A DNA stretch of 11,858 nt, taken from UHGV virus genome UHGV-0338394. One strand, written 5' to 3'. Below the pieces are notes generated by a model, which did no database searches, was not told the origin of the DNA, and saw only the letters and a program-made list of their open reading frames with translations. The stretch's first letter is position 1; every line of letters begins with the position of its first letter. Source of the stretch: a virus. This document shows positions 112-11,453 of the stretch, in pieces. Made by a program: the position numbers and the translations under genes.

Positions 112-330
112 ATGGCAACACATAACGCAACAACCCACACAATCCCCCAATCTGGCTATATCCGACGCTTCCGCCTTGCTGAATTGCTGGGCGTTAGCGT
201 TTCCACCATTGATCGCAAAGTTCGCAATGGGGTTCTGCCGCGCCCGGTAAAGCTGGGCGAGAAGATTACCGCCTTTGATGCGGTAGAGATTAACAACTGG
301 CTGGCAGAGCGTCGCGGGAAGGTGGCCTGA
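112..330 (+). CDS. alpA: AlpA/Vis-family excisionase-type transcriptional regulator (72 aa)
   Basis: Small protein with the AlpA-type HTH signature RLAELLGVSVSTIDRKVRNGVLPRPVKLGEKITAFDAVEINNWL. It is the first gene of a co-directional operon, as in CP4-57/P4-like elements and Gram-negative PICIs. Confidence 0.85.
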   Translation: MATHNATTHTIPQSGYIRRFRLAELLGVSVSTIDRKVRNGVLPRPVKLGEKITAFDAVEINNWLAERRGKVA

Positions 331-764
331 TGAAAAAAGAAAACCGCCCCGGACAGCAGGCGGCTAACATAGATATTCGCGGATCTGATGTTACGCCACC
401 AGCGCCCACCACACAAGCGCCACGCCGCACACCGAAGAAGCACCGCGCCCGCGTCTATATGCTACGCACTGGGGTAGAGGGATGGACAGAAAACGACATT
501 CTGCGCTACTGCCGCCTTTCGTCTGGAAGGAACTACGCCAGCGAGTTAGAACGCAGACTTGATATTCAGTTAGAGCGTATAGACGAAAAGAACCCCGACG
601 GGATAGGGTCACATTTACGCTATCGCTTTACCGGGCGCGGTGACGTTCTAAAAGTTATTCGGCTTGTGAACCATAACGCCGACGCTGGCGGCTATCAGGG
701 ACTTTCTCAGCCTGAAATTGCCGACATTCTCAATCTATACCCGGACAATTTCACCGCCGCCTAA
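330..764 (+). CDS. Hypothetical protein (144 aa), translationally coupled to alpA
   Basis: ATG overlaps the alpA stop (TGATG). Basic, Pro/Thr-rich N-terminus. No motif I can assign. Confidence 0.55.
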   Translation: MKKENRPGQQAANIDIRGSDVTPPAPTTQAPRRTPKKHRARVYMLRTGVEGWTENDILRYCRLSSGRNYASELERRLDIQLERIDEKNPDGIGSHLRYRFTGRGDVLKVIRLVNHNADAGGYQGLSQPEIADILNLYPDNFTAA

Positions 765-776
765 CGGAGACTGAAA

Positions 777-1610
777 ATGAACATCGAAAAAAGCAGATTA
801 ATTTCTGAGGCCGCCCCTCATCTGAACGCCTATCAGGGCACAATTAACGGTAATGAATTTGCCGCAATTGTCCCGGTTATTCCTGGTCATATCGGTGGGC
901 GTGAAACCAATATTGTTAGCGCAAAAGCGTTACACAAAGCGTTGGGCGTGGGAAAAGACTTCTCTACATGGATCACTGATCGCATCTCTGAATATGACTT
1001 CACCATTGGGCACGATTACTCAGTCCATAAAACTATTTCCCCAAATTTGGGGAAAAGCCCGAATGGCGCGGCTTACAGCAAGATTAAGCACTCTGGCAGA
1101 CCCGGCAAAGACTATCTGTTAAGTGTCGGAATGGCGAAAGAACTGGCAATGATCGAACGCACCGAACAGGGCCGCGCCGTTCGACGTTACTTCATTCAGT
1201 GTGAGGAAGCACTACAGCGCAGCGTGCCAGAGATTGCCGCTCAGTATCGCCGCCAGCTAAAAGCCCGTATCAGTGCCGCCAACCTGTTTAAGCCGATGTG
1301 CGCAGCACTTGAAAGCGCCCGCGCAGAACAGGGCAAACAGACACAGCAGCGCCACTACAGCAACGAGAGCAACATGATCGCCCGTATCGTGCTGGGTGGC
1401 ATGACGGCAAAGCAGTGGGCGCAGGCAAATGGCATTACTGGCGAACCACGGGACAGCATGAACGCAGCACAGCTTGAACACCTCGCCTATCTGGAAAGCA
1501 CCAATATCACGCTAATTGAGCTGGGGCAGGACTACCAGAAGCGCAAAGACGAGTTAATGCGCCTTTCACAGCGCTGGCTGGCGAAGCGTATGGGGGTAAA
1601 CCATGCGTAA
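777..1610 (+). CDS. Phage antirepressor-like protein (AntA-type N-terminal domain plus KilA-C-like C-terminal region), 277 aa
   Basis: GGAG ribosome-binding site 7 nt upstream of the ATG. The N-terminal segment SAKALHKALGVGKDFSTWITDRISEYDF and the central DYLLSVGMAKELAMIERTEQGRAVRRYFIQCEE match my recollection of AntA/KilA-C antirepressor signatures. Confidence 0.7.
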   Translation: MNIEKSRLISEAAPHLNAYQGTINGNEFAAIVPVIPGHIGGRETNIVSAKALHKALGVGKDFSTWITDRISEYDFTIGHDYSVHKTISPNLGKSPNGAAYSKIKHSGRPGKDYLLSVGMAKELAMIERTEQGRAVRRYFIQCEEALQRSVPEIAAQYRRQLKARISAANLFKPMCAALESARAEQGKQTQQRHYSNESNMIARIVLGGMTAKQWAQANGITGEPRDSMNAAQLEHLAYLESTNITLIELGQDYQKRKDELMRLSQRWLAKRMGVNHA

Positions 1611-1785
1611 CCATAATCCGATGCCGGGAAGCCGTTACAAGGATTCGCACGGGGCTGTAGTGACCGTACAGCGCGTCGAGCATAACCGCGTGACCTTTTA
1701 CCGCGAGGGCTATCAGTCGCCATGTGTTCAGCCTTTGGAGAGATTCGTTAAGGAGTTCGTGGAGGTGCGCCGTGATACTGAATGA
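1603..1785 (+). CDS. Small DUF4222-like protein (60 aa)
   Basis: ATG overlaps the upstream stop (ATGCGTAA). The pattern PGSRYKDSHGAVVTVQRVEHNRVTFYREGYQSPCVQPLERF resembles the small DUF4222 proteins common in enterobacterial P4-like prophages. Assigned from memory. Confidence 0.5.
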   Translation: MRNHNPMPGSRYKDSHGAVVTVQRVEHNRVTFYREGYQSPCVQPLERFVKEFVEVRRDTE

Positions 1786-2284
1786 ACCTGCCGCCCAGAA
1801 AGAAGCCTTTAATCTGGCTGGCATGTTGTCAAAAGTTGACATCTGCAACCTTACAAAACCTGATATTGATACCGCAGCGCCCGGAGTTCCGTTATCAGTA
1901 CGCGAGGCGCTTACCCTCAACAAAAAGATGGTGAGCCGTGCACAGGAAAAACTCTTAAAGGGTTACGGTTTTATCTGGTATGACCACCTAGCAGAGAAAA
2001 GCTGTTATAGTCCAAGCGTTGCTGCAAAATCAGCAACCGGGATTGGAACCCCGAACACACTAAGGGCGACACAGACGCCGAAAGCGTCTTTTTTTGCGTC
2101 CGATCACCACGCACATCAAATCAGCGGCCTTGCCCGTACTGTATCTATGGTGGCGTTAGTGGGGCTACGTTCGCGTAGGCCGGTTTCCTTTGTGTCCGGT
2201 AGTTCCAACCCTGCTAACGTCACCGCCACTATTAAGATTGGAACCTTATGCGGTGACTCCTTAAACACAAAGGAGGCTGCCATA
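1786..2284 (+). promoter_or_regulatory. Probable non-coding control region, with a P4-type RNA-immunity-like arrangement of short complementary motifs
   Basis: GATTGGAACC occurs at 2041-2050 and 2236-2245, and its near reverse complement GTTCCAACCC at 2202-2211 lies between them. A UUCG-tetraloop hairpin sits at 2165-2178 and an intrinsic terminator at 2073-2095. The only long ORF across the region (1724-2476) reads through that terminator and has a low-complexity middle section. Confidence 0.35.
2073..2095 (+). terminator. Rho-independent terminator (AGACGC-CGAAA-GCGTCT followed by a T-run)
   Basis: 6-bp GC-rich stem (2073-2078 pairing with 2084-2089), a 5-nt loop, and a 7-T run (2089-2095) whose first T also closes the stem. 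Confidence 0.6.
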
Positions 2285-2476
2285 ATGGCTACTACCCCTA
2301 CCCAAAAACCATCATTTATCTGGTTAATCGCAGCAGTTCGCCGCGATATGCCGACAATTACCGCCAAAATTCACCATATCGCCGCAGAGACTGAGCAGGA
2401 AGCCCGCCGCATTCTGGCGCGGGATCACGTTTGCTTTTTTGCCGGACGTATTCGCACAGGGGGCGCACATGCTTAA
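2285..2476 (+). CDS. Small hypothetical protein (63 aa), first gene of the operon leading to the primase
   Basis: Strong AAGGAGG ribosome-binding site at 2270-2276, 8 nt before the ATG at 2285. Lies immediately downstream of the putative control region. The start is chosen inside the longer ORF 1724-2476. Confidence 0.5.
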   Translation: MATTPTQKPSFIWLIAAVRRDMPTITAKIHHIAAETEQEARRILARDHVCFFAGRIRTGGAHA

Positions 2477-2648
2477 TTACTTCCGTGTTGCAGGATGCGC
2501 CACCGCCCGGAGCGGCGAATTAGTCGAGTTCGTTTATATCGTTGACGCCCGCAGCGCGATCAGCGCCAAAGCTGAGGCGCTAAATCAGGCCAGAAATGAA
2601 CGCCTTTCCCACATCCAGATTACCCGCGTTCGTGAGGTGGCGGCATGA
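2469..2648 (+). CDS. Small hypothetical protein (59 aa)
   Basis: AGGGGG ribosome-binding site at 2456-2461. ATG at 2469 overlaps the upstream stop (ATGCTTAA). Confidence 0.45.
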   Translation: MLNYFRVAGCATARSGELVEFVYIVDARSAISAKAEALNQARNERLSHIQITRVREVAA

Positions 2649-2959
2649 GCATGTATGACGATTTAGTGTCCTGCAAATTTGATGGTTGTACACCTGATGA
2701 TCTGAACGGAATTGAGAGCTGCGCCAGTGATGCCGTGGATGATTTAATGCTGGGCGTAAGTGCCATTGGTAGCCTCATGTTCTGGGCGGCTGGTAGCGAT
2801 GGCTACCCGGAGGAAAGCGCTAAGGCTGATATGTACAGATTAGGCGCAATGCTGGGACATATCGGAGAAGTTGCGCGGGCGCTGAACGATAGCGCTGCAA
2901 ACGCCGCATTCTTGCGCTCAATCAGTGAAAAAGAAGCCAAAGGGAGGGCGGGCAAATGA
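2645..2959 (+). CDS. Hypothetical acidic protein (104 aa)
   Basis: ATGA start/stop overlap with the upstream gene. Continuous + strand operon. Confidence 0.6.
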   Translation: MSMYDDLVSCKFDGCTPDDLNGIESCASDAVDDLMLGVSAIGSLMFWAAGSDGYPEESAKADMYRLGAMLGHIGEVARALNDSAANAAFLRSISEKEAKGRAGK

Positions 2960-3219
2960 ACATAACTACCATCTATCGCCACCCGGCAGAGCTGGAAGCC
3001 GAAGCGATGTTATCCCGCGAGCAGGCTTACCCGGATGATTTTACGCTGGCAGACCGAACGGCAGAACGCATGACCCGCGCCCGCAATGGGCTGGCTCACG
3101 TTATGACCGAATTAGCCCCGCACATGGACGCAGAGCAAACAGCAGCCGTCCAGTGCTGGCTGATGAAGGTTTTGGCTATTGTCGATGCCACCCTGATTGA
3201 TGCGGAGGGCAGCGCATGA
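2956..3219 (+). CDS. Hypothetical protein (87 aa)
   Basis: ATGA overlap with the upstream gene. Confidence 0.6.
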   Translation: MNITTIYRHPAELEAEAMLSREQAYPDDFTLADRTAERMTRARNGLAHVMTELAPHMDAEQTAAVQCWLMKVLAIVDATLIDAEGSA

Positions 3220-3842
3220 GCAACGCACCGACCATTAAATCGGGAAATGCCGACTTATTACACGCCGAAGCCACACCGCACGGCGTCAATATCATGACCC
3301 GCAATGATGCCGGGGGATATGAGCAGGTTGCTCTTATCAGCTACGAGAGCGCCGTGAACGGCCTTGACGCCGGAGAGTACGACGATAAGCCAGATATCGG
3401 ATACGCCATTCATTTTGCCGTTGCTGATGGCGGGGCGCGTGGCTGGTTCGACTTCACCGCGCAGCATAACGTCACTATGTGGCGCTGGCTGATTGCTGCG
3501 ACGTTCATTTCTGAGATGAAGCGCGAAAACGGCACAACCACGGTAACTGAGTCTGACGGCACTTCATCGCAGGTGGCGATTTACTCCAATGGCACGGCGG
3601 GGATTGTGGTTTACCCGTTCGCGGAACGTCTGGCGATGGCTAACAACATGGAGGGCGCAATGGTTGAGCGCTACGGCATTGAGCAGGGAACAGCGAACGC
3701 CATTGTTTTTTATCAGGCCATGATCGACACGGAGCGCGGCGAGTTGACCCCGTTCGGGCGTGAAACGCTTGCTGAACTTCACAACAGCTTTATAGCTGAA
3801 CTGGATGAAAACGGCTGGCCTGAAATGCCGCTGCCGCACTGA
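3216..3842 (+). CDS. Hypothetical protein (208 aa)
   Basis: ATGA overlap with the upstream gene. Long ORF with ordinary amino-acid composition. No motif I can assign. Confidence 0.65.
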   Translation: MSNAPTIKSGNADLLHAEATPHGVNIMTRNDAGGYEQVALISYESAVNGLDAGEYDDKPDIGYAIHFAVADGGARGWFDFTAQHNVTMWRWLIAATFISEMKRENGTTTVTESDGTSSQVAIYSNGTAGIVVYPFAERLAMANNMEGAMVERYGIEQGTANAIVFYQAMIDTERGELTPFGRETLAELHNSFIAELDENGWPEMPLPH

Positions 3843-3851
3843 GGGGGCGAC

Positions 3852-4193
3852 ATGATTACTAAAAATTTCCGACTGAATGCGCTGGCGAATAAGTATGCGT
3901 CGGCACTGTATAACCACATTACCTCCACCAGCGGCGGGGACTATTTCATGGTTGATGCGGACGGCCTCGCCGTCCGTGTGGAAATCGTCAATGGAGTAAA
4001 AGGCGTTCGCAGCCTGATCGATAGCTACACACTGGCAGCCATGAAAGTGTCCTACCCGCAGTGGGAAACCGTGGGGATAGAGATTCTTGATCGTTGCGTC
4101 ACTAATGACGGATTGACTGACGTCGGGCGTGAGATATGGCAAAGCATGGTTAAAGACATGGGCGCGACCGTGGCAGGGGGCAACCATGCGTAA
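3852..4193 (+). CDS. Hypothetical protein (113 aa)
   Basis: GAGGGGG ribosome-binding site upstream of the ATG at 3852. The stop overlaps the primase start. Confidence 0.65.
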   Translation: MITKNFRLNALANKYASALYNHITSTSGGDYFMVDADGLAVRVEIVNGVKGVRSLIDSYTLAAMKVSYPQWETVGIEILDRCVTNDGLTDVGREIWQSMVKDMGATVAGGNHA

Positions 4194-6627
4194 TATCGAC
4201 CTTATCCGCGAAGTGACCAGTGCCGCCGCCGGGCGCTGGCCTTATGTGCTGGCTGGATTGTCTATCGACGTGCCTGATTCATCGCGCCGCCATTCTCCAT
4301 GCCCTGCATGTGGTGGGAAAGACCGTTTCAGATTCGACGACAACGGGCGCGGTAGCTTTATCTGCAATCAGTGTGGCGCTGGTGACGGTTTAGACCTGAT
4401 TAAGAAGGTGAACAACTGCGACACCACAGAAGCGGCGAGGCTTGCCGCTGATGTGCTGGGTATTGATTACCGGGCAGCGCAAACCGACCCGGTGGCAGCG
4501 AGCCATAGAAGAGAGCAACTGGAAGCTGACCGCCAGCAGCGTGAGCAGGAGCGCCAGAAACAGGCAGCAGAGGATGCAGAGCAGCGAAGGGCTACGTTTG
4601 CCCGTCTGTATGCCGGAATGCGCCAGAGTGCCACACAGGGCGAATCTGATTACCTGCAATCAAAAGGGCTGACCGGGTTTAAATATCCGGTAATGCCGGA
4701 TGGTTCGTTATTGCTGGAGCTGGTGGACGAATCCGGCGCAGTGGCAGCAGCGCAAACCATTACACCGCAGGGAGAGAAGCGACTCCTGACAGGTTCAGCA
4801 AAGCGCGGGGCATATCACGCCGTAAACGCGCCAGAATCGCCGCAGAGCGTTTTAATTGCCGAGGGGCTGGCGACGGCCCTTTCAGTTCACCTGATGCGCC
4901 CGGACGCGCTGGCAGTGGCAGCAATTGACGCGGGCAACCTGCTACCCGTTGCCGAAGTGATGCGCCGGATATATCCAGCCACGCAGATTATCATTGCCGC
5001 AGATAACGACCACCAGCAGGACGAACAGGCGAACACGGGCAAAGATGCCGCAGAGAAAGCCGCCTTATCCGTGGCTGGCTGGGTGGCGCTGCCGCCGACA
5101 GACTACAAAGCCGACTGGGACGACTACCGCCAGCAAAACGGGCTGGAAGTCGCTACGGCTGCGTTTAACGATTCGATGTACCAGATTCAGGGGGAAGCCG
5201 TGAAACCACAACTACAGGCCATTGCGGGCGGTAAATCCCGCCGTAAAGCCGAAGTCGGAGATATTGCACAAATGGCAGCCAGCCAGAAAGCGCGGTTGCT
5301 TTCATCTCGCTGGGATATGTTGGCGGTCAACCCTGATAGTGGCGCTGTTTACTGCTACGAATCTGGCGTATGGGAGAAGCTACCAGACAGTGAATTAGAA
5401 AGGGTTATGGTGGCAATTTTCGACGAGCACGAAGCCCACTACACCGAAAAGGGGATTAAATCGGTTGTCGCAACCATGAAGCTGCAAATACCGGTAATTG
5501 GTGAGCGGAGCGGGGATCTGATTGGTTTTGATAACGGCGTTTATGACCTCGCCACGCAGACGTTTTCCGCCCATTCGCCGGGTAACTGGCTGATGAACCA
5601 CAATGGGATCACCTACACCCCGCCAGCGCCGGGGGAAAATATTACCACCAGCGCCCCCAATTTTACCCGTTGGCTGAATCATGCAACGGCTGGCGACCAT
5701 CATAAGGCCGAGCGTATCAAAGCAGCCTTGTTTATGGTGCTGGCGAAGCGTCACGACTGGCAGCTATTCATTGAGATAACTGGCGAGGGCGGCAGTGGGA
5801 AATCCGTATTCAGCAGCATAGCAACCACGCTGGCAGGTGAACACAACACCGCCAGCGGTAGCATGATGACGCTGGACACCGCACGGGGACGGGCGCAGTT
5901 CGTAGGGAAAAGCCTGATTATTATGCCTGACCAGACCCGCTACGTTGGAGAGGGTGCGGGGATTAAAGCCATTACGGGCGGCGATCCGGTAGAGATTGAT
6001 GGGAAATATGAAAAGCAGTTCACAACCGTGATAAATGCCGTTGTTATGGCAACCAATAACGAGCCGATGACATTCACGGAGCGAAACGGGGGCATTGCCC
6101 GCCGCCGCGTGATATTCCCGTTTAATAACCCGGTATCAGACGCAGACAAAGACCCGGATTTAACCGCAAAAATCAGGCGAGAAATCCCGGTGATTATCCG
6201 CCACCTGCTAACCACCTTTGCCGACCAGAACAAAGCAAAGGCACTATTACTAGAGCAGCGCGATTCGCAGGAGGCGCTAGAGGTTAAACGCGGCACGGAT
6301 CCGGTTGTCGATATGTGTGCGGCGCTTTTTTTCATGAACGAACCCAAAGGCATGATGATGGGCGGAGGTACATGGGCAGGCCAGCCAGAGCCGAGGACGT
6401 ATCTTTATCATCTTTATCTGGCGTTTATGGAGTATCACGGTTTGGGTAAACCGCTTTCCGTCAATAAGTTTTCACGCGCCATAAAATCAGCAGCAAAAGA
6501 GTACCGAGCCAGCTACCTGACGAGAAGCATTAACGGCAGAGCGCAAACCAACGTTGGCTATAACGAGAAGGCTGAGGAGTTCATGCCCCGTGCTTACGGT
6601 GTGGAGAGCGGGCAGAGTGATGATTGA
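4186..6627 (+). CDS. P4 alpha-type DNA primase-helicase (zinc ribbon, Toprim and SF3 helicase domains), 813 aa
   Basis: Start taken at ATG 4186 (AGGGGG site at 4175-4180) rather than 4129. Zinc ribbon CPACGGKDRFRFDDNGRGSFICNQCG, Toprim acidic residues (VLIAEGLATALS and IIIAADNDHQQDE), Walker A GEGGSGKS, Walker B-like SLIIMPDQ, and SF3 motif C VVMATNNEP. Confidence 0.9.
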   Translation: MRNIDLIREVTSAAAGRWPYVLAGLSIDVPDSSRRHSPCPACGGKDRFRFDDNGRGSFICNQCGAGDGLDLIKKVNNCDTTEAARLAADVLGIDYRAAQTDPVAASHRREQLEADRQQREQERQKQAAEDAEQRRATFARLYAGMRQSATQGESDYLQSKGLTGFKYPVMPDGSLLLELVDESGAVAAAQTITPQGEKRLLTGSAKRGAYHAVNAPESPQSVLIAEGLATALSVHLMRPDALAVAAIDAGNLLPVAEVMRRIYPATQIIIAADNDHQQDEQANTGKDAAEKAALSVAGWVALPPTDYKADWDDYRQQNGLEVATAAFNDSMYQIQGEAVKPQLQAIAGGKSRRKAEVGDIAQMAASQKARLLSSRWDMLAVNPDSGAVYCYESGVWEKLPDSELERVMVAIFDEHEAHYTEKGIKSVVATMKLQIPVIGERSGDLIGFDNGVYDLATQTFSAHSPGNWLMNHNGITYTPPAPGENITTSAPNFTRWLNHATAGDHHKAERIKAALFMVLAKRHDWQLFIEITGEGGSGKSVFSSIATTLAGEHNTASGSMMTLDTARGRAQFVGKSLIIMPDQTRYVGEGAGIKAITGGDPVEIDGKYEKQFTTVINAVVMATNNEPMTFTERNGGIARRRVIFPFNNPVSDADKDPDLTAKIRREIPVIIRHLLTTFADQNKAKALLLEQRDSQEALEVKRGTDPVVDMCAALFFMNEPKGMMMGGGTWAGQPEPRTYLYHLYLAFMEYHGLGKPLSVNKFSRAIKSAAKEYRASYLTRSINGRAQTNVGYNEKAEEFMPRAYGVESGQSDD

Positions 6628-7248: not shown

Positions 7249-7706
7249 CAGCACAAATTTCAGCATACGGGCGGCTGGTGGCAGATCCCCAGACCCGTAC
7301 CACAGCAAACGGTACAAGCATGGCAATGGGCCGGTTAGCGGTGGCACTGCCCTGCCATGCAGCAGAGGGCGGAGAGGTTACTTTCTGGCTGGGCGTGGTG
7401 GCATTCGGCAAACAGGCCGACGCACTGGCAGGACACGTTAAAGGCGATTTAGTCAGTGTTGCCGGAGCGATGCAGATCAATCAGTGGACGGGCAAGGATG
7501 GCGGTACACAGCAAGGTTATCAGGTAGTAGCCGACAGCGTGATCAGCGCCAGAACGGTACGCCCCGGCGGGAAGCGGGCCGAATCAGTCAAAGCAAGCGG
7601 AGCCAGCAGGGGCCACACAACACAATCCGCGCCGGGATGGGAGTTATATAATACCCCTGATGATTTTGACCAACGCCCACCATTCGACGATGAAACGCCA
7701 TTCTGA
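7245..7706 (+). CDS. Single-stranded DNA-binding (SSB) family protein with an acidic C-terminal tail, 153 aa
   Basis: The OB-fold core aligns by eye with E. coli SSB ([15 protein letters not shown] against [38 protein letters not shown] against [33 protein letters not shown] against RKWTDQSGQ). The C-terminus FDDETPF resembles the SSB tail DFDDDIPF. Confidence 0.85.
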   Translation: [153 protein letters not shown]

Positions 7707-7716
7707 GAGGGAAGAT

Positions 7717-8361
7717 ATGAGTACGCAACCCATCATTATTGAGTTCGGCAGCTATCGCTGGCCCAGACATCTTGCAATACATGAAGCAGGTCATGCGATA
7801 GCCGCATGGTTGTTCGGCATACAGGAGGTAGAAATTGCGTTATCGGGTAATAACCGAGTGGCAAAAACCTACCTTAGAGGAGATGTTGATGAATGTGGAG
7901 CTGTAGCGGTATGGCAGCACGGCAACTATCCACGGAATGTGGCTGAGGTTAAGTCTTACAACCTCTCGAATGATGACACCAGGTTACGTCTGATAGACCA
8001 GGTATGCCGGGATATGGTTATCTCTCTAGCTGGTATCGTCGCGCAATCACGCTATACGGGGGATGATATTAACGCACTGATGGAAACGTCCGGGAAAGCA
8101 GACATGAAAAATGTTCGTGATTTATCAGAGGTATACCGGGTGGCTGGTGGAGAGGATGCTGATATACAGAGAATATCCCTTTCCCGTGCTGAGGCGCTGA
8201 TTGCCCTGAAATGGTGGGATGTTATCGCGCTGGCGAAAATACTGGAGAACCGTAACCATATGCCTGCCAGAAACTTCCAGCGCATTATGGGTGATATTGA
8301 CAAGCCTGTACCAAAGCCTATGACGCTGGCTGAACTGGATGAATTGGTGGGTGAAGAATGA
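7717..8361 (+). CDS. Stand-alone HExxH zinc metallopeptidase, FtsH (M41)-like motif HEAGHAI, no AAA+ module, 214 aa
   Basis: GAGGG ribosome-binding site 5 nt before the ATG at 7717. RHLAIHEAGHAIAAWLFG matches the FtsH active site TAYHEAGHAI. The downstream LAGIVAQSRYTGDDINALMETSGKAD resembles the M41 region carrying the third zinc ligand. No Walker motifs are present. Confidence 0.65.
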   Translation: MSTQPIIIEFGSYRWPRHLAIHEAGHAIAAWLFGIQEVEIALSGNNRVAKTYLRGDVDECGAVAVWQHGNYPRNVAEVKSYNLSNDDTRLRLIDQVCRDMVISLAGIVAQSRYTGDDINALMETSGKADMKNVRDLSEVYRVAGGEDADIQRISLSRAEALIALKWWDVIALAKILENRNHMPARNFQRIMGDIDKPVPKPMTLAELDELVGEE

Positions 8362-8708
8362 AGCCATACATTCTGGCAGCCGTCCTGATCTCATCGGCAC
8401 CGGCACTATCTGCTATCCATTGTGGGGGCTTTACCATACAGCCAGACCGTTATCGGACAACGATTAACGGCGATGTGGTTCATATTGTTGATGCGCAATT
8501 TTACGGCGCACCGCGAGACTTTAGCCAGGCCGCCATAAAGTTATTGCCGGATGCCATTACCACTACCGATAGGCAATACCGACTGGAGACGCAGGGAGGC
8601 AATGCCTTGCTTGAGTTGATGACCAGAGAAAACCCGCCACGTGTGCTTAATCGTGAGCGCTGCGATGCCGGGTTAACAAGATTCGGTTGGTACACTTCTG
8701 CGCCGTGA
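8358..8708 (+). CDS. Predicted secreted/periplasmic protein with an N-terminal signal peptide, 116 aa
   Basis: ATGA overlap with the peptidase gene. N-terminus MKPYILAAVLISSAPALSA has the form of a Sec signal peptide with an Ala-x-Ala cleavage site. Confidence 0.6.
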   Translation: MKPYILAAVLISSAPALSAIHCGGFTIQPDRYRTTINGDVVHIVDAQFYGAPRDFSQAAIKLLPDAITTTDRQYRLETQGGNALLELMTRENPPRVLNRERCDAGLTRFGWYTSAP

Positions 8709-8892
8709 TGTTCGTTCCGAGCGCAGCCTAAAATCAACGGCGTGACGCGGGCGATTCGCACCACAACCACACAGGGCGTCATAGAACGGGATAGACTTCT
8801 GCGACAATTTGCATTCGCCGCCAATATAGCAAGCCGTCCACATCAAGCAATAAACTATCACCGGGAGGGGGTAGTCAAATCTCTACAGCCCT

Positions 8893-9292: not shown

Positions 9293-9835
9293 ATGTACCA
9301 GCTAAAGATAACCATCCGAGACAGCAAACCACCTATATGGCGGCGTGTGCTGGTTCCAGAGCAAATCCCCTTTAGTAAACTTCATGCCGTGATCCAGTTA
9401 GCTTTTGGCTGGAATGACGAACACCTGTATATGTTCGAGAAAGGGCGTAAAGGTGATCCAGGTAGCGAGTATCACGTATGGGGTGAGGATGAAAGCATGG
9501 GTAACGCGGCAATCACGCCACTATGGGCGGCGCTCCAGAATGAGGGTGACAAGCTGGTTTATACGTATGACTTTGGCGACTGGTGGGATTGCGTCATTGT
9601 GCTGGAGAAGCAAACACACGATACGAGTAATCAGCCCATTAGCTGCCTGCGTGGGAAAGGCACCACCCCGGCGGAAAACTCAGGCGGCTTGCATGGTTAC
9701 AATGAATTGCTATTACAGGCCAGAGAGTCTGATAATCCTGAGCAGGCCGAGATCCACAATTTCCTGATGCTGGATATTGAACGCCGGGTTTACGACCTGA
9801 GCCGCATCAACGACAGATTGCAGGCTATTAACTGA
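9293..9835 (+). CDS. PRiA4_ORF3-like protein (plasmid pRiA4b ORF-3 family), 180 aa
   Basis: N-terminal signature LKITIRDSKPPIWRRVLVPEQIPFSKLHAVIQLAFGWNDEHLYMF matches my recollection of the family's PpIWRR...LH..IQ.aFgW..HLh.F pattern. Assigned from memory. Confidence 0.75.
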   Translation: MYQLKITIRDSKPPIWRRVLVPEQIPFSKLHAVIQLAFGWNDEHLYMFEKGRKGDPGSEYHVWGEDESMGNAAITPLWAALQNEGDKLVYTYDFGDWWDCVIVLEKQTHDTSNQPISCLRGKGTTPAENSGGLHGYNELLLQARESDNPEQAEIHNFLMLDIERRVYDLSRINDRLQAIN

Positions 9836-10585: not shown

Positions 10586-10628
10586 ACAGATTTACTTTCT
10601 TTGCAATCGATATCACATGGAGTGGGCA

Positions 10629-11453
10629 ATGAACGAACATCATCAACCTTTTGAAGAAATACGGCATTATGGCACTGAAGGGCAAGAATTTTGGTCAGCT
10701 AGAGAATTGGCACCGTTACTGGATTATCGGGACTGGCGCAATTTTCAAAAGGTACTGGCCCGCGCGACTCAAGCGTGCGAAGCCAGCAATCAAGCTGCAT
10801 CTGACCATTTCGTTGAAACCACCAAAATGGTTGTATTAGGTTCAGGGGCTCAACGAGAACTTGAAGATGTTCATCTCTCCCGCTATGCCTGTTACCTGGT
10901 AGTACAAAACGGCGACCCTGCGAAACCGGTTATTGCGGCAGGGCAAACTTATTTTGCTATCCAGACCCGACGGCAGGAGCTGGCTGACGATGAAGCTTTC
11001 AGGCAACTTCGTGAAGACGAAAAGCGTCTTTTTCTGAGAAATGAATTGAAAGAACATAACAAACAATTGGTTGAGGCAGCGCAGCAAGCTGGGGGAGCGA
11101 CAGCTATCGATTTCGCCATATTTCAGAATCATGGTTACCGGGGGCTGTATGGTGGATTAGATCAGAAAGCTATTCATCAGCGGAAGGGGCTGAAAAAGAA
11201 TCAGAAGATCCTGGATCATATGGGTTCAACAGAACTGGCGGCTAATCTCTTTCGAGCTACCCAAACAGAAGAAAAACTCAAGCGGGATGGCGTGAATTCA
11301 AAACAGCAAGCAAACACCACACACTTTGACGTGGGTCGCAAGGTGAGGCAAACCATTCAGGAACTTGGCGGAACCATGCCTGAGGAGTTGCCGACCCCGC
11401 AGGTCAGCATCAAGCAGTTGGAAAACAGTGTAAAAATTACAGAGAAGAAATAG
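10629..11453 (+). CDS. dinD: DNA damage-inducible protein D (274 aa)
   Basis: Translation beginning MNEHHQPFEEIRHYGTEGQEFWSARELAPLLDYRDW matches my recollection of E. coli DinD. GGAG ribosome-binding site 6 nt before the ATG at 10629, which I prefer to the ORF-track start at 10617. The LexA box lies immediately upstream. Confidence 0.88.
   Translation: MNEHHQPFEEIRHYGTEGQEFWSARELAPLLDYRDWRNFQKVLARATQACEASNQAASDHFVETTKMVVLGSGAQRELEDVHLSRYACYLVVQNGDPAKPVIAAGQTYFAIQTRRQELADDEAFRQLREDEKRLFLRNELKEHNKQLVEAAQQAGGATAIDFAIFQNHGYRGLYGGLDQKAIHQRKGLKKNQKILDHMGSTELAANLFRATQTEEKLKRDGVNSKQQANTTHFDVGRKVRQTIQELGGTMPEELPTPQVSIKQLENSVKITEKK

Follow-up and report, generated by a model that had tools for sequence, protein, structure and literature searches.

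Between positions 1,786 and 2,284 of the viral genome UHGV-0338394, a stretch of 11,858 nucleotides (nt) that was analysed as a whole and is called the window here, a long open reading frame (ORF) runs through an intrinsic terminator and a set of short complementary motifs. The locus raises the question of whether this DNA encodes a protein or a regulatory RNA. A first-pass annotation had taken it for a likely non-coding region and had proposed an RNA-based immunity or attenuation switch like that of phage P4, gating the operon that leads to a primase. This proposal is borne out by Rfam matches in the same order as in P4 and by a P4-family primase encoded downstream. We conclude that positions 2003–2284 very probably form a complete P4/P1-type RNA immunity module that provides functional P4-type antisense immunity. 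The module is a known kind of system, of which it is an uncharacterised member with its own specificity. The region is best read as an RNA module that at the same time has to stay translatable, neither non-coding DNA nor a protein domain.

RNA families, folds and pairing sites

The window was scanned with Rfam covariance models, among them the leader families (isrK / P4 seqA leader; RF01394 and RF03163). Three families scored above their gathering thresholds, all on the plus strand and in canonical order: c4-a1b1 at 2005–2057 (53.6 bits vs. 46.7), isrK at 2018–2094 (74.6 bits vs. 50) and, over its full length, the C4 antisense RNA (RF01695) at 2143–2230 (82.1 bits vs. 45, E = 2.6e-15). The same three models matched the cI region of P4 on the left-operon strand in the same order as in the window (C4 with 74.9 bits at 8420–8507, isrK with 60.8 bits and c4-a1b1 with 44.1 bits). 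Phage P1 was also matched by the three models in the same order, with 68.8 bits for C4 and an isrK score of 35.1 bits that lies below gathering. In P4, pairing of the CI RNA with seqA and seqC leads to premature termination of the replication operon; IsrK is a structural homologue of seqA, and the P4/P1 and leader RNA names are treated as equivalent in the literature (PMC4825925).

The AAGGAGG at 2270–2276 and the ATG at 2285, which had been proposed as a more credible gene start, were both found, and this ATG starts a kil/icd-like gene with a clear codon signature. Its product is 37% identical to P4 Kil (the C-terminal 65 amino acids of a P4 ORF) and 34% identical to P1 Icd. Moreover, the segment from the Shine–Dalgarno sequence to the kil start is nearly identical in the window and in P4, which have AGGAGGCTGCCATnATGGCTAC in common. 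Taken together, the Rfam matches, the shared kil-start sequence, the homologous Kil and the P4-family primase indicate that the likeness to P4 is homology and not mere resemblance.

Upstream of the leader, the hexamer TATAGT (2006–2011) was invariant in an alignment of the window, P4 and P1, and it aligned with the annotated −10 element of the P1 c4 promoter P1c4 (P51b; P1 48218–48223). In the window it is preceded by TG, which gives an extended −10 element. From this alignment and from the start of the isrK model at 2018, we infer a promoter at 2003–2011. The terminator reported by the first-pass annotation (AGACGC-CGAAA-GCGTCT followed by a T-run, 2073–2095) was recovered as the only terminator-like site in a terminator scan of 1400–2800. 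It belongs to the isrK-like leader, and we take it to correspond to terminator t1 of P4.

The C4 match folds into a 16-base-pair (bp) outer stem around a UUCG hairpin (CTACG-TTCG-CGTAG at 2165–2178, as described earlier) and another hairpin, whose loop measures 12 nt; a single-stranded joint of 8 nt comes next. The folded RNA has a free energy of −39.5 kcal/mol and a z-score of −4.78. By homology with the annotated P1 c4 RNA, the mature RNA is predicted at about 2149–2227 (about 79 nt); a tRNA-like acceptor stem, followed by GCCA at 2225–2228, hints at processing.

The exposed parts of this fold carry two elements with partners on both sides of the RNA (Table 1; a′, a1, a2 and b′, b1, b2 follow the P1 nomenclature). 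The first-pass annotation had described one such set, a triad resembling seqA, seqB and seqC, in which GGGATTGGAACC (2039–2050) and GATTGGAACC (2236–2245) flank a complementary middle element, GTTCCAACCC (2202–2211). All three motifs were located and their complementarity is real, but the exposed part of the middle element (a′) comprises about 7 nt (2202–2208) and not the 8–10 that had been assumed, because its CCC (2209–2211) sits in the outer stem of the folded RNA. A second set had been overlooked: the hairpin loop at 2186–2195 (b′) is a perfect 10-nt complement of ACACAAAGGA at 2265–2274 (b2). The downstream site a2 begins 8 nt past the end of the Rfam C4 match, at a position equivalent to that of P1 a2, and b2 has counterparts in P1 b2, 11–18 nt before icd, and in UUCACAGGAGG of P4. 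The longest perfect run between the upstream site b1 and the C4 loop is 5 nt. These pairings were obtained from a complementarity analysis restricted to the loops, since duplex prediction between the whole C4 RNA and its flanks ignores internal structure and is uninformative. The specificity of immunity is readable directly from two short sequences, the hairpin loop and the joint.

In the predicted minimum-energy fold of the unprocessed read-through transcript (2018–2300), 2182–2195 pairs in cis with 2265–2278, that is, over the Shine–Dalgarno sequence of kil. Read-through RNA would therefore be expected to be translationally silent even before processing, which matches the inactive read-through isoform described for the Salmonella prophage Gifsy-1.

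The 11.8-kb window has three copies of TTGGAAC or its complement, all within 200 nt of one another. The count of this 7-mer alone is not significant (3 vs. 1.28 expected; 26 of 200 shuffles reach 3), and neither is the motif count of the second complementary set when compared on its own with shuffles. The triad therefore rests on comparative co-variation and not on motif statistics.

Co-variation of loops, joints and targets across related loci

Related loci were fetched with the 63-amino-acid Kil protein, and not the RNA, as the query, which yielded 59 viral-contig loci and 18 loci in bacterial genomes. All bacterial loci carry Enterobacterales labels except one (L074, Chryseobacterium). Being seeded with one Kil protein, the set is phylogenetically narrow, with Kil relatives of 42–95% identity that are mostly from Enterobacterales.

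When a covariance model of C4 was derived from the sequences of the window, P4 and P1, 50 of 51 non-redundant sources proved to carry a full-length match some 55 nt upstream of kil. Among 30 distinct homologues, 99.7% of the cells were paired, and 15 of the 26 base pairs had changed on both sides, compared with at most 6 in controls in which one strand was slid by 1–3 columns. The covariation score was 0.564 vs. at most 0.13 in the slid controls, and none of 500 shuffles reached the observed score. The leader behaved in the same manner: its covariance model (R2) matched 51 of 52 sources with 99.6% of the cells paired, 12 of 16 pairs showed changes on both sides vs. at most 4 in slid controls, and the terminator with its U-run was present in all 51 matches.

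The specificity elements also varied together. The set contains 20 distinct hairpin loops and 11 distinct joints, which combine into 24 specificity classes, each matching its own targets, and the three elements of the originally proposed triad co-varied across these classes. The mean perfect run between loop and downstream site was 9.1 nt within a locus (minimum 7) and 4.35 nt against the sites of other classes; the corresponding values were 6.96 and 4.69 nt for the joint and its downstream site, and 6.83 and 4.93 nt for the joint and its upstream site. Examples of loop and target are UCCUUUGUGU/ACACAAAGGA in the window, CCUGUGAA/UUCACAGG in P4, and UCCAUACAGU/ACUGUAUGGA and UCCGUAUGCG/CGCAUACGGA elsewhere. 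In every class, the downstream site abuts or overlaps GAGG. The upstream site a1 was a perfect 6–7-nt complement of the joint in 23 of the 24 classes, the sole exception being P4, where the site falls just beyond the 150-nt stretch scanned. The least conserved pairing partner across loci was b1, which is weak (a run of at most 5 nt) in 9 of the 24 classes, including that of the window; a1, a2 and b2 are essentially always perfect. The strength of autoregulation at the leader terminator may differ between elements.

Several individual loci deserve mention. The Escherichia coli island closest to the window (L001), with 98% identity overall, has a diverged immunity module of another specificity (loop UUUCCUGUAACG, the loop of the module in NZ_AP027829; joint ACGCCAA). 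Window positions 1861–2268 and L001 positions 7627–8241 are about 65–75% identical with many indels, whereas the flanks of the module, kil included, are 88–94% identical. A strain different from that of L001 (E. coli 873.10, NZ_CP061754) carries the window-type module at 99.7% identity. This pattern suggests, at the level of sequence comparison, that immunity cassettes are exchanged between otherwise near-identical islands. L074, a 429-kb contig (CACSKA010000004.1) labelled Chryseobacterium sp. 18061, contains a module of enterobacterial type (C4 97.7 bits) with a Kil that is 83% identical, and may be mislabelled or contaminated. In Pantoea sp. 1.19 (L032/L075), a Kil homologue (72% identity from residue 4) had no C4 or leader match upstream with the covariance models; kil can therefore occur apart from the RNA module.

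The open frame, kil and the host island

The long ORF of the first-pass annotation (1724–2476), which reads through the terminator and the motifs, is indeed in the ORF list. As an eta-like ORF it starts at the GTG at 1772 and overlaps the stop of the preceding DUF4222 gene; RefSeq uses the same frame and start in the homologous E. coli island. The ORF spans the whole RNA module. Its P4 counterpart (8168–8812, minus strand; 214 amino acids) extends from near the end of the alpA-like gene across PLE, seqA and cI and ends as Kil, with a Kil-like C-terminus. According to Forti et al. (1999), as summarised in PMC10111431, P4 Kil is translated on occasional read-through, and full-length Eta, in which kil is nested, is translated only from an upstream late promoter; translation of Eta prevents termination.

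The earlier view that the long ORF is spurious was not upheld. It is the counterpart of P4 eta, and 49 of 50 distinct loci have one frame, at constant phase relative to C4, that crosses the leader and C4 without a stop and is open over 280 nt or more ahead of the kil start codon. Chance was considered as a source of the long ORF and rejected, because the open frame is conserved across loci. Stops numbered 0.02 per locus in the conserved frame vs. 2.5 and 3.7 in the other two; inside C4, they occurred in 0 of 159 distinct codon states vs. 9 of 160 and 8 of 166, relatedness being reduced in these statistics solely by counting distinct codon states, with no further correction for phylogeny. The frame is fused to kil in about half of the loci, as in the window and P4, and is unfused elsewhere. 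Among loci L004–L080, the spacing between the C4 end and the kil ATG is 54 or 55 nt, and fusion of the open frame to kil depends on this 1-nt difference. Where there is no fusion, the frame is one position off; it remains open across the alternative kil frame and on into the next gene, reaching as far as 1,167 nt beyond C4.

Conservation of the frame was not accompanied by conservation of codons. In the comparative set, nucleotide diversity at codon positions 1/2/3 was 0.18/0.31/0.22 in the promoter and leader (2003–2095), 0.42/0.46/0.43 in the spacer (2096–2142), 0.34/0.34/0.31 in C4 (2143–2230) and 0.36/0.34/0.43 in the seqC-like segment (2231–2284), compared with 0.23/0.21/0.43 in kil (2285–2473). 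Codon periodicity is therefore absent before 2285 and clear after it, and the codon-level conservation that would have pointed to a real protein was found in kil and not in 2003–2284. The original label of likely non-coding is an oversimplification, given a frame that is kept open in nearly all related loci. The region is probably translated when transcribed from a promoter upstream, with an amino-acid sequence that is not conserved. A conserved open frame without codon conservation fits translation through the module as a bypass of immunity.

Near the N-terminus of the eta-like ORF, the motif QxKxFxLAGL(M/L) (window 1796–1828) recurs in many otherwise diverged loci. This stretch is also conserved as nucleotides (CTGGCTGGCCTGATG) and shows no clear synonymous signature; either a peptide motif or a site in DNA or RNA would be compatible with this.

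The gene order in the window is alpA, orf144, AntA/B, DUF4222, eta(kil), small ORFs, primase and SSB, with starts and stops that overlap or abut. The overlapping or abutting genes from 112 to 1785 lead straight on to the eta-like ORF, an arrangement suggestive of a single long operon transcribed from a point upstream of alpA. The five small ORFs downstream of kil have no known function and gave PHROG matches of unknown function. The counterpart of the window in some E. coli genomes is an island of roughly 13 kb, integrated between yicC and dinD, whose products include a tyrosine integrase, AlpA, AntA/B, a primase and SSB. None of sid, delta and psu was annotated or matched in that island. The RNA module is of P4 type; strictly taken, the term P4-like satellite may not apply to the host element. 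An integrated P4-like or PICI-like (phage-inducible chromosomal island) satellite element is the best explanation of where the module belongs. At the right end of the window lie a pRiA4b ORF-3-like gene (9293–9835) and the chromosomal dinD (10617–11453), which has a Bro-N domain; the island boundary falls between these two genes, before yicG.

A module of this specificity was present in 46 of 5,426 complete E. coli genomes. Among the 12 of these 46 matches that were listed, it lies under a coding sequence (CDS) named "host cell division inhibitor Icd-like protein" or "ash family protein". The one RefSeq island inspected in full has only CDSs and no annotated RNA at the module. Some Stx2 phage records annotate both RNAs.

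Table 1. Positions of the RNA module, its pairing sites and the surrounding genes in the window
Feature	Position	Strand	Description
Predicted internal constitutive promoter (PLE/P51b-like)	2003–2011	+	Extended −10 TGtTATAGT; start expected near 2018
Leader RNA (isrK / P4 seqA-like)	2018–2095	+	Rfam isrK, c4-a1b1; hairpins 2018–2037 and 2038–2053, terminator 2073–2095
Upstream target a1 (part of seqA), UUGGAAC	2043–2049	+	Loop of second leader hairpin; perfect 7-nt complement of 2202–2208
Upstream target b1, ACACUAAGG (DNA ACACTAAGG)	2057–2065	+	Pairs with C4 loop, 4 + 4 bp around one U-U mismatch
C4 / P4 CI-like antisense RNA (seqB carrier)	2143–2230	+	Rfam C4, 82.1 bits
b′ element, UCCUUUGUGU (DNA TCCTTTGTGT)	2186–2195	+	12-nt loop of C4 hairpin 2; stem 2179–2183 with 2196–2200
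a′ element, GUUCCAA (middle element of the first-pass annotation)	2202–2208	+	Single-stranded joint of C4
Downstream target a2 (part of seqC), UUGGAAC	2238–2244	+	Perfect 7-nt complement of 2202–2208
Downstream target b2, ACACAAAGGA (2265–2274)	2265–2276	+	Overlaps Shine–Dalgarno AAGGAGG (2270–2276) of kil
kil / icd-like gene, 63 amino acids	2285–2476	+	NCBIfam NF033153 Icd-like, E = 1.4e-20; first gene translated after the module
Eta-like long ORF	1772–2476 (ORF list 1724–2476)	+	GTG 1772; GGAGG 1761–1765; ends as kil
Downstream operon, presumed gated by the module	2469–6627	+	Five overlapping or abutting ORFs of 59–208 amino acids, then primase-helicase
P4-family primase-helicase ORF	4129–6627	+	TIGR01613 primase_Cterm; Zn_Ribbon_Prim, Toprim_3, DUF5906, D5_N domains
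AlpA-like gene	112–330		Upstream chain
144-amino-acid ORF (orf144), no assigned function	330–764		Upstream chain
AntA/AntB antirepressor gene	777–1610		Upstream chain
DUF4222 gene	1603–1785		Upstream chain

Proposed mechanism, alternatives and known systems

In the mechanism that we propose, the internal constitutive promoter (−10 at 2006–2011) would start transcripts near 2018, most of which would end at the leader terminator and yield a short isrK/seqA-like RNA. Transcripts that read through would carry the C4/CI RNA, from which RNase P is expected to release a stable RNA of about 79 nt. Its exposed loop and joint would pair both with the upstream sites (2043–2049 and 2057–2065) and with the downstream sites (2238–2244 and 2265–2274). 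The downstream pairing, in trans or in cis on the unprocessed transcript, would cover the Shine–Dalgarno sequence of kil and leave kil untranslated. The untranslated transcript would then terminate early, probably through Rho because 1400–2800 holds no further intrinsic terminator, and the small ORFs and the primase would not be expressed. The element would stay quiescent and be immune to a second copy of the same specificity. Pairing at the upstream sites would probably enhance termination at the leader terminator, giving autoregulation of the RNA; such autoregulation at P4 terminator t1 was reportedly described by Briani and colleagues in 2000. Immunity could be bypassed by transcription from upstream of alpA, in which case the eta-like ORF would be translated through the module, ribosomes would remove the RNA structures, and transcription would stay coupled to translation. 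RNA processing, action in trans, the mode of termination and the translational bypass are modelled here on work on P4, P1 and Gifsy-1.

Several observations weigh against this interpretation. A generic sigma-70 scan of 1400–2800 found no promoter, the candidate having been missed because it has no good −35 element. No terminator was identified downstream of kil, where Rho-dependent termination is presumed. With an imperfect b1 in the window, the RNA may autoregulate itself only weakly at the leader terminator. The homologous leader RNA of Gifsy-1 activates translation of the read-through mRNA, which makes the sign of the leader's contribution uncertain. Finally, as the host element is without the sid, delta and psu genes of P4, the trigger of derepression may differ from that of P4.

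The annotation of the region as protein deserves weighing, since the RNA matches might be a by-product of protein conservation in the middle of a real protein, of the "Ash family" or repressor type, fused to an Icd-like domain. The Pfam family PF10554 (Phage_ASH) matches amino acids 95–195 of the ORF (E = 2.6e-18), PHROG 6928 ("transcriptional repressor") matches it over the leader and C4, RefSeq annotates only CDSs at the module, and the frame is open in all but one of the 50 loci. However, the Pfam match spans exactly nt 2006–2308, the extent of the RNA module, and none of the four segments of 2003–2284 shows the third-position excess that is seen in kil. Moreover, variation tracks base pairs, with compensatory changes in both the C4 RNA and the leader, and it tracks intermolecular complementarity. 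The annotation of a P4 "cI protein" has been superseded by the CI RNA (PMC4825925, PMC10111431), and orf45 of Gifsy-1 is conserved in nucleotides and variable in amino acids. We therefore regard a protein as the origin of these matches as extremely unlikely. It is also conceivable that the module is of the P1/P7 immI type and gates an antirepressor (c4-icd-ant) directed against a helper or resident prophage repressor, not replication genes. The RNA families are the same as in P1, the first gene past the module is icd-like, and the element contains an AntA/AntB gene. This gene, however, lies upstream of the module and not downstream of icd, so that it is out of reach both of expression from the internal promoter and of gating by C4. 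Small ORFs of unknown function and a P4-family primase follow downstream, as in P4, and domain and PHROG scans of the ORFs downstream of kil found no Ant, Bro or KilA domains, that is, no downstream antirepressor of the P1 type. In addition, the module is crossed by an eta-like ORF, a feature shared with P4 but not with P1, in which no frame is open through c4. An immI-type role is thus very unlikely.

An activating switch of the IsrK type, as in Gifsy-1, would assign the locus a role in induction and not in immunity, with the short terminated leader acting in trans on the read-through mRNA, or titrating C4, and thereby switching on translation of the ORF across C4 and of the genes downstream. 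The leader scores well above gathering for isrK and has a terminator in every homologue, its a1 and b1 sites are complementary to C4 and might serve as a decoy, and in Gifsy-1 the short IsrK RNA activates translation of orf45-anrP at a locus that is needed for prophage induction. Nevertheless, the genes are arranged as in P4, in which the system represses; the pairing that is strongest and best conserved joins the C4 loop to the kil Shine–Dalgarno sequence, a repressive geometry; and b1 is imperfect in the window. We consider such a switch highly improbable as the role of the locus, although activation of the IsrK type and immunity are not mutually exclusive. The P4-type antisense immunity module remains our preferred interpretation.

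Within that interpretation, the conserved frame invites a family-wide reading. The leader/C4 frame may be kept solely so that ribosomes arriving from a promoter upstream can override immunity; the "Ash family" domain (Pfam PF10554, NCBI "ash family protein", PHROG 6928 "transcriptional repressor") would then be a translated RNA module, and the 1-nt spacing would toggle fusion to kil. We put the chances of this reading at about even. It generalises what was shown for P4 eta. At least the core of these protein families seems to have been built from translated sequences of a conserved RNA module.

The main effect of these results is a correction of annotation, as an RNA module sits under the names of protein-coding genes. 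Recognition of the module would make the island a repressed, self-immune mobile element with a replication operon gated by an antisense RNA. Furthermore, some 20 naturally orthogonal antisense RNA–target pairs are available as a panel from the comparative set. The RNA repressor system of P4/P1 type is already known, as are C4 and isrK hits in Gram-negative PICIs (PMC10111431). What goes beyond the literature consulted is the wide range of natural specificities, the conserved translatable frame, whose fused and unfused forms are toggled by 1 nt, and the sign that a Pfam family represents a translated RNA module.

Among known systems, Gram-negative PICIs and helper-embedded PICIs have C4 and isrK hits inside the genes of a "Bro zone" (Bro-network; PMC10111431). 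They share with the window the order of integration genes (int, alpA), Bro zone (AntA, Ash/eta-like) and replication genes (primase, SSB); unlike in these PICIs, no late or capsid zone was seen in the window's island, and the yicC–dinD island was not identified in the literature consulted. The isrK-orf45-anrP locus of Gifsy-1 (IsrK small RNA, STnc1160), which has an equivalent in Stx2 phages, resembles the window in having an isrK-family leader whose terminator is partly read through and a processed C4-like RNA downstream of it. Orf45, which lies over the C4-like RNA, is translated, with a conserved nucleotide sequence and a variable amino-acid sequence (PMC4825925). The same frame is open through C4 in Stx2 phage F039 as in the window. 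In Gifsy-1, the leader activates translation, and the gated gene is antirepressor-like and controls a Q-like antiterminator; in the window, by contrast, the gated genes are kil and the replication operon.

The immI operon of P1/P7 comprises the c4 antisense RNA, the a1/b1 and a2/b2 sites, icd and ant1/ant2. The P1 GenBank record annotates a1, b1, a 77-nt c4 RNA, a2, b2, icd and ant at positions equivalent to those found here. P1 and the window share the RNA family, the layout of the sites, b2 over the icd ribosome-binding site, an Icd-like first gene and specificity through complementarity of loop and target. P1 differs in its downstream antirepressor, in having no open frame through c4 and in an isrK score below gathering.

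The closest relative is the P4 immunity region, which consists of PLE, seqA, the terminator t1, cI/CI RNA with seqB, seqC, the nested eta and kil, and the primase alpha. The two differ in specificity, which is given by UCUCAC and CCUGUGAA in P4 and by UUCCAA and CCUUUGUGU in the window. In P4, eta directly follows the alpA-like gene, whereas in the window the eta-like ORF is coupled to DUF4222, with AntA/B and another ORF intervening. P4 also has sid, delta and psu, none of which was seen in the window's host island, and b1 is imperfect in the window. In other respects they correspond closely: both have matches to the three Rfam models, identically ordered and similarly spaced, the −10 sequence TATAGT, a leader terminator and the C4 fold. 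Both show a two-part complementarity upstream and downstream of the RNA, with part of the downstream complementarity lying over the kil Shine–Dalgarno sequence, and both encode homologous Kil proteins, an eta-like ORF with kil nested in it and, further downstream, a P4-family primase.

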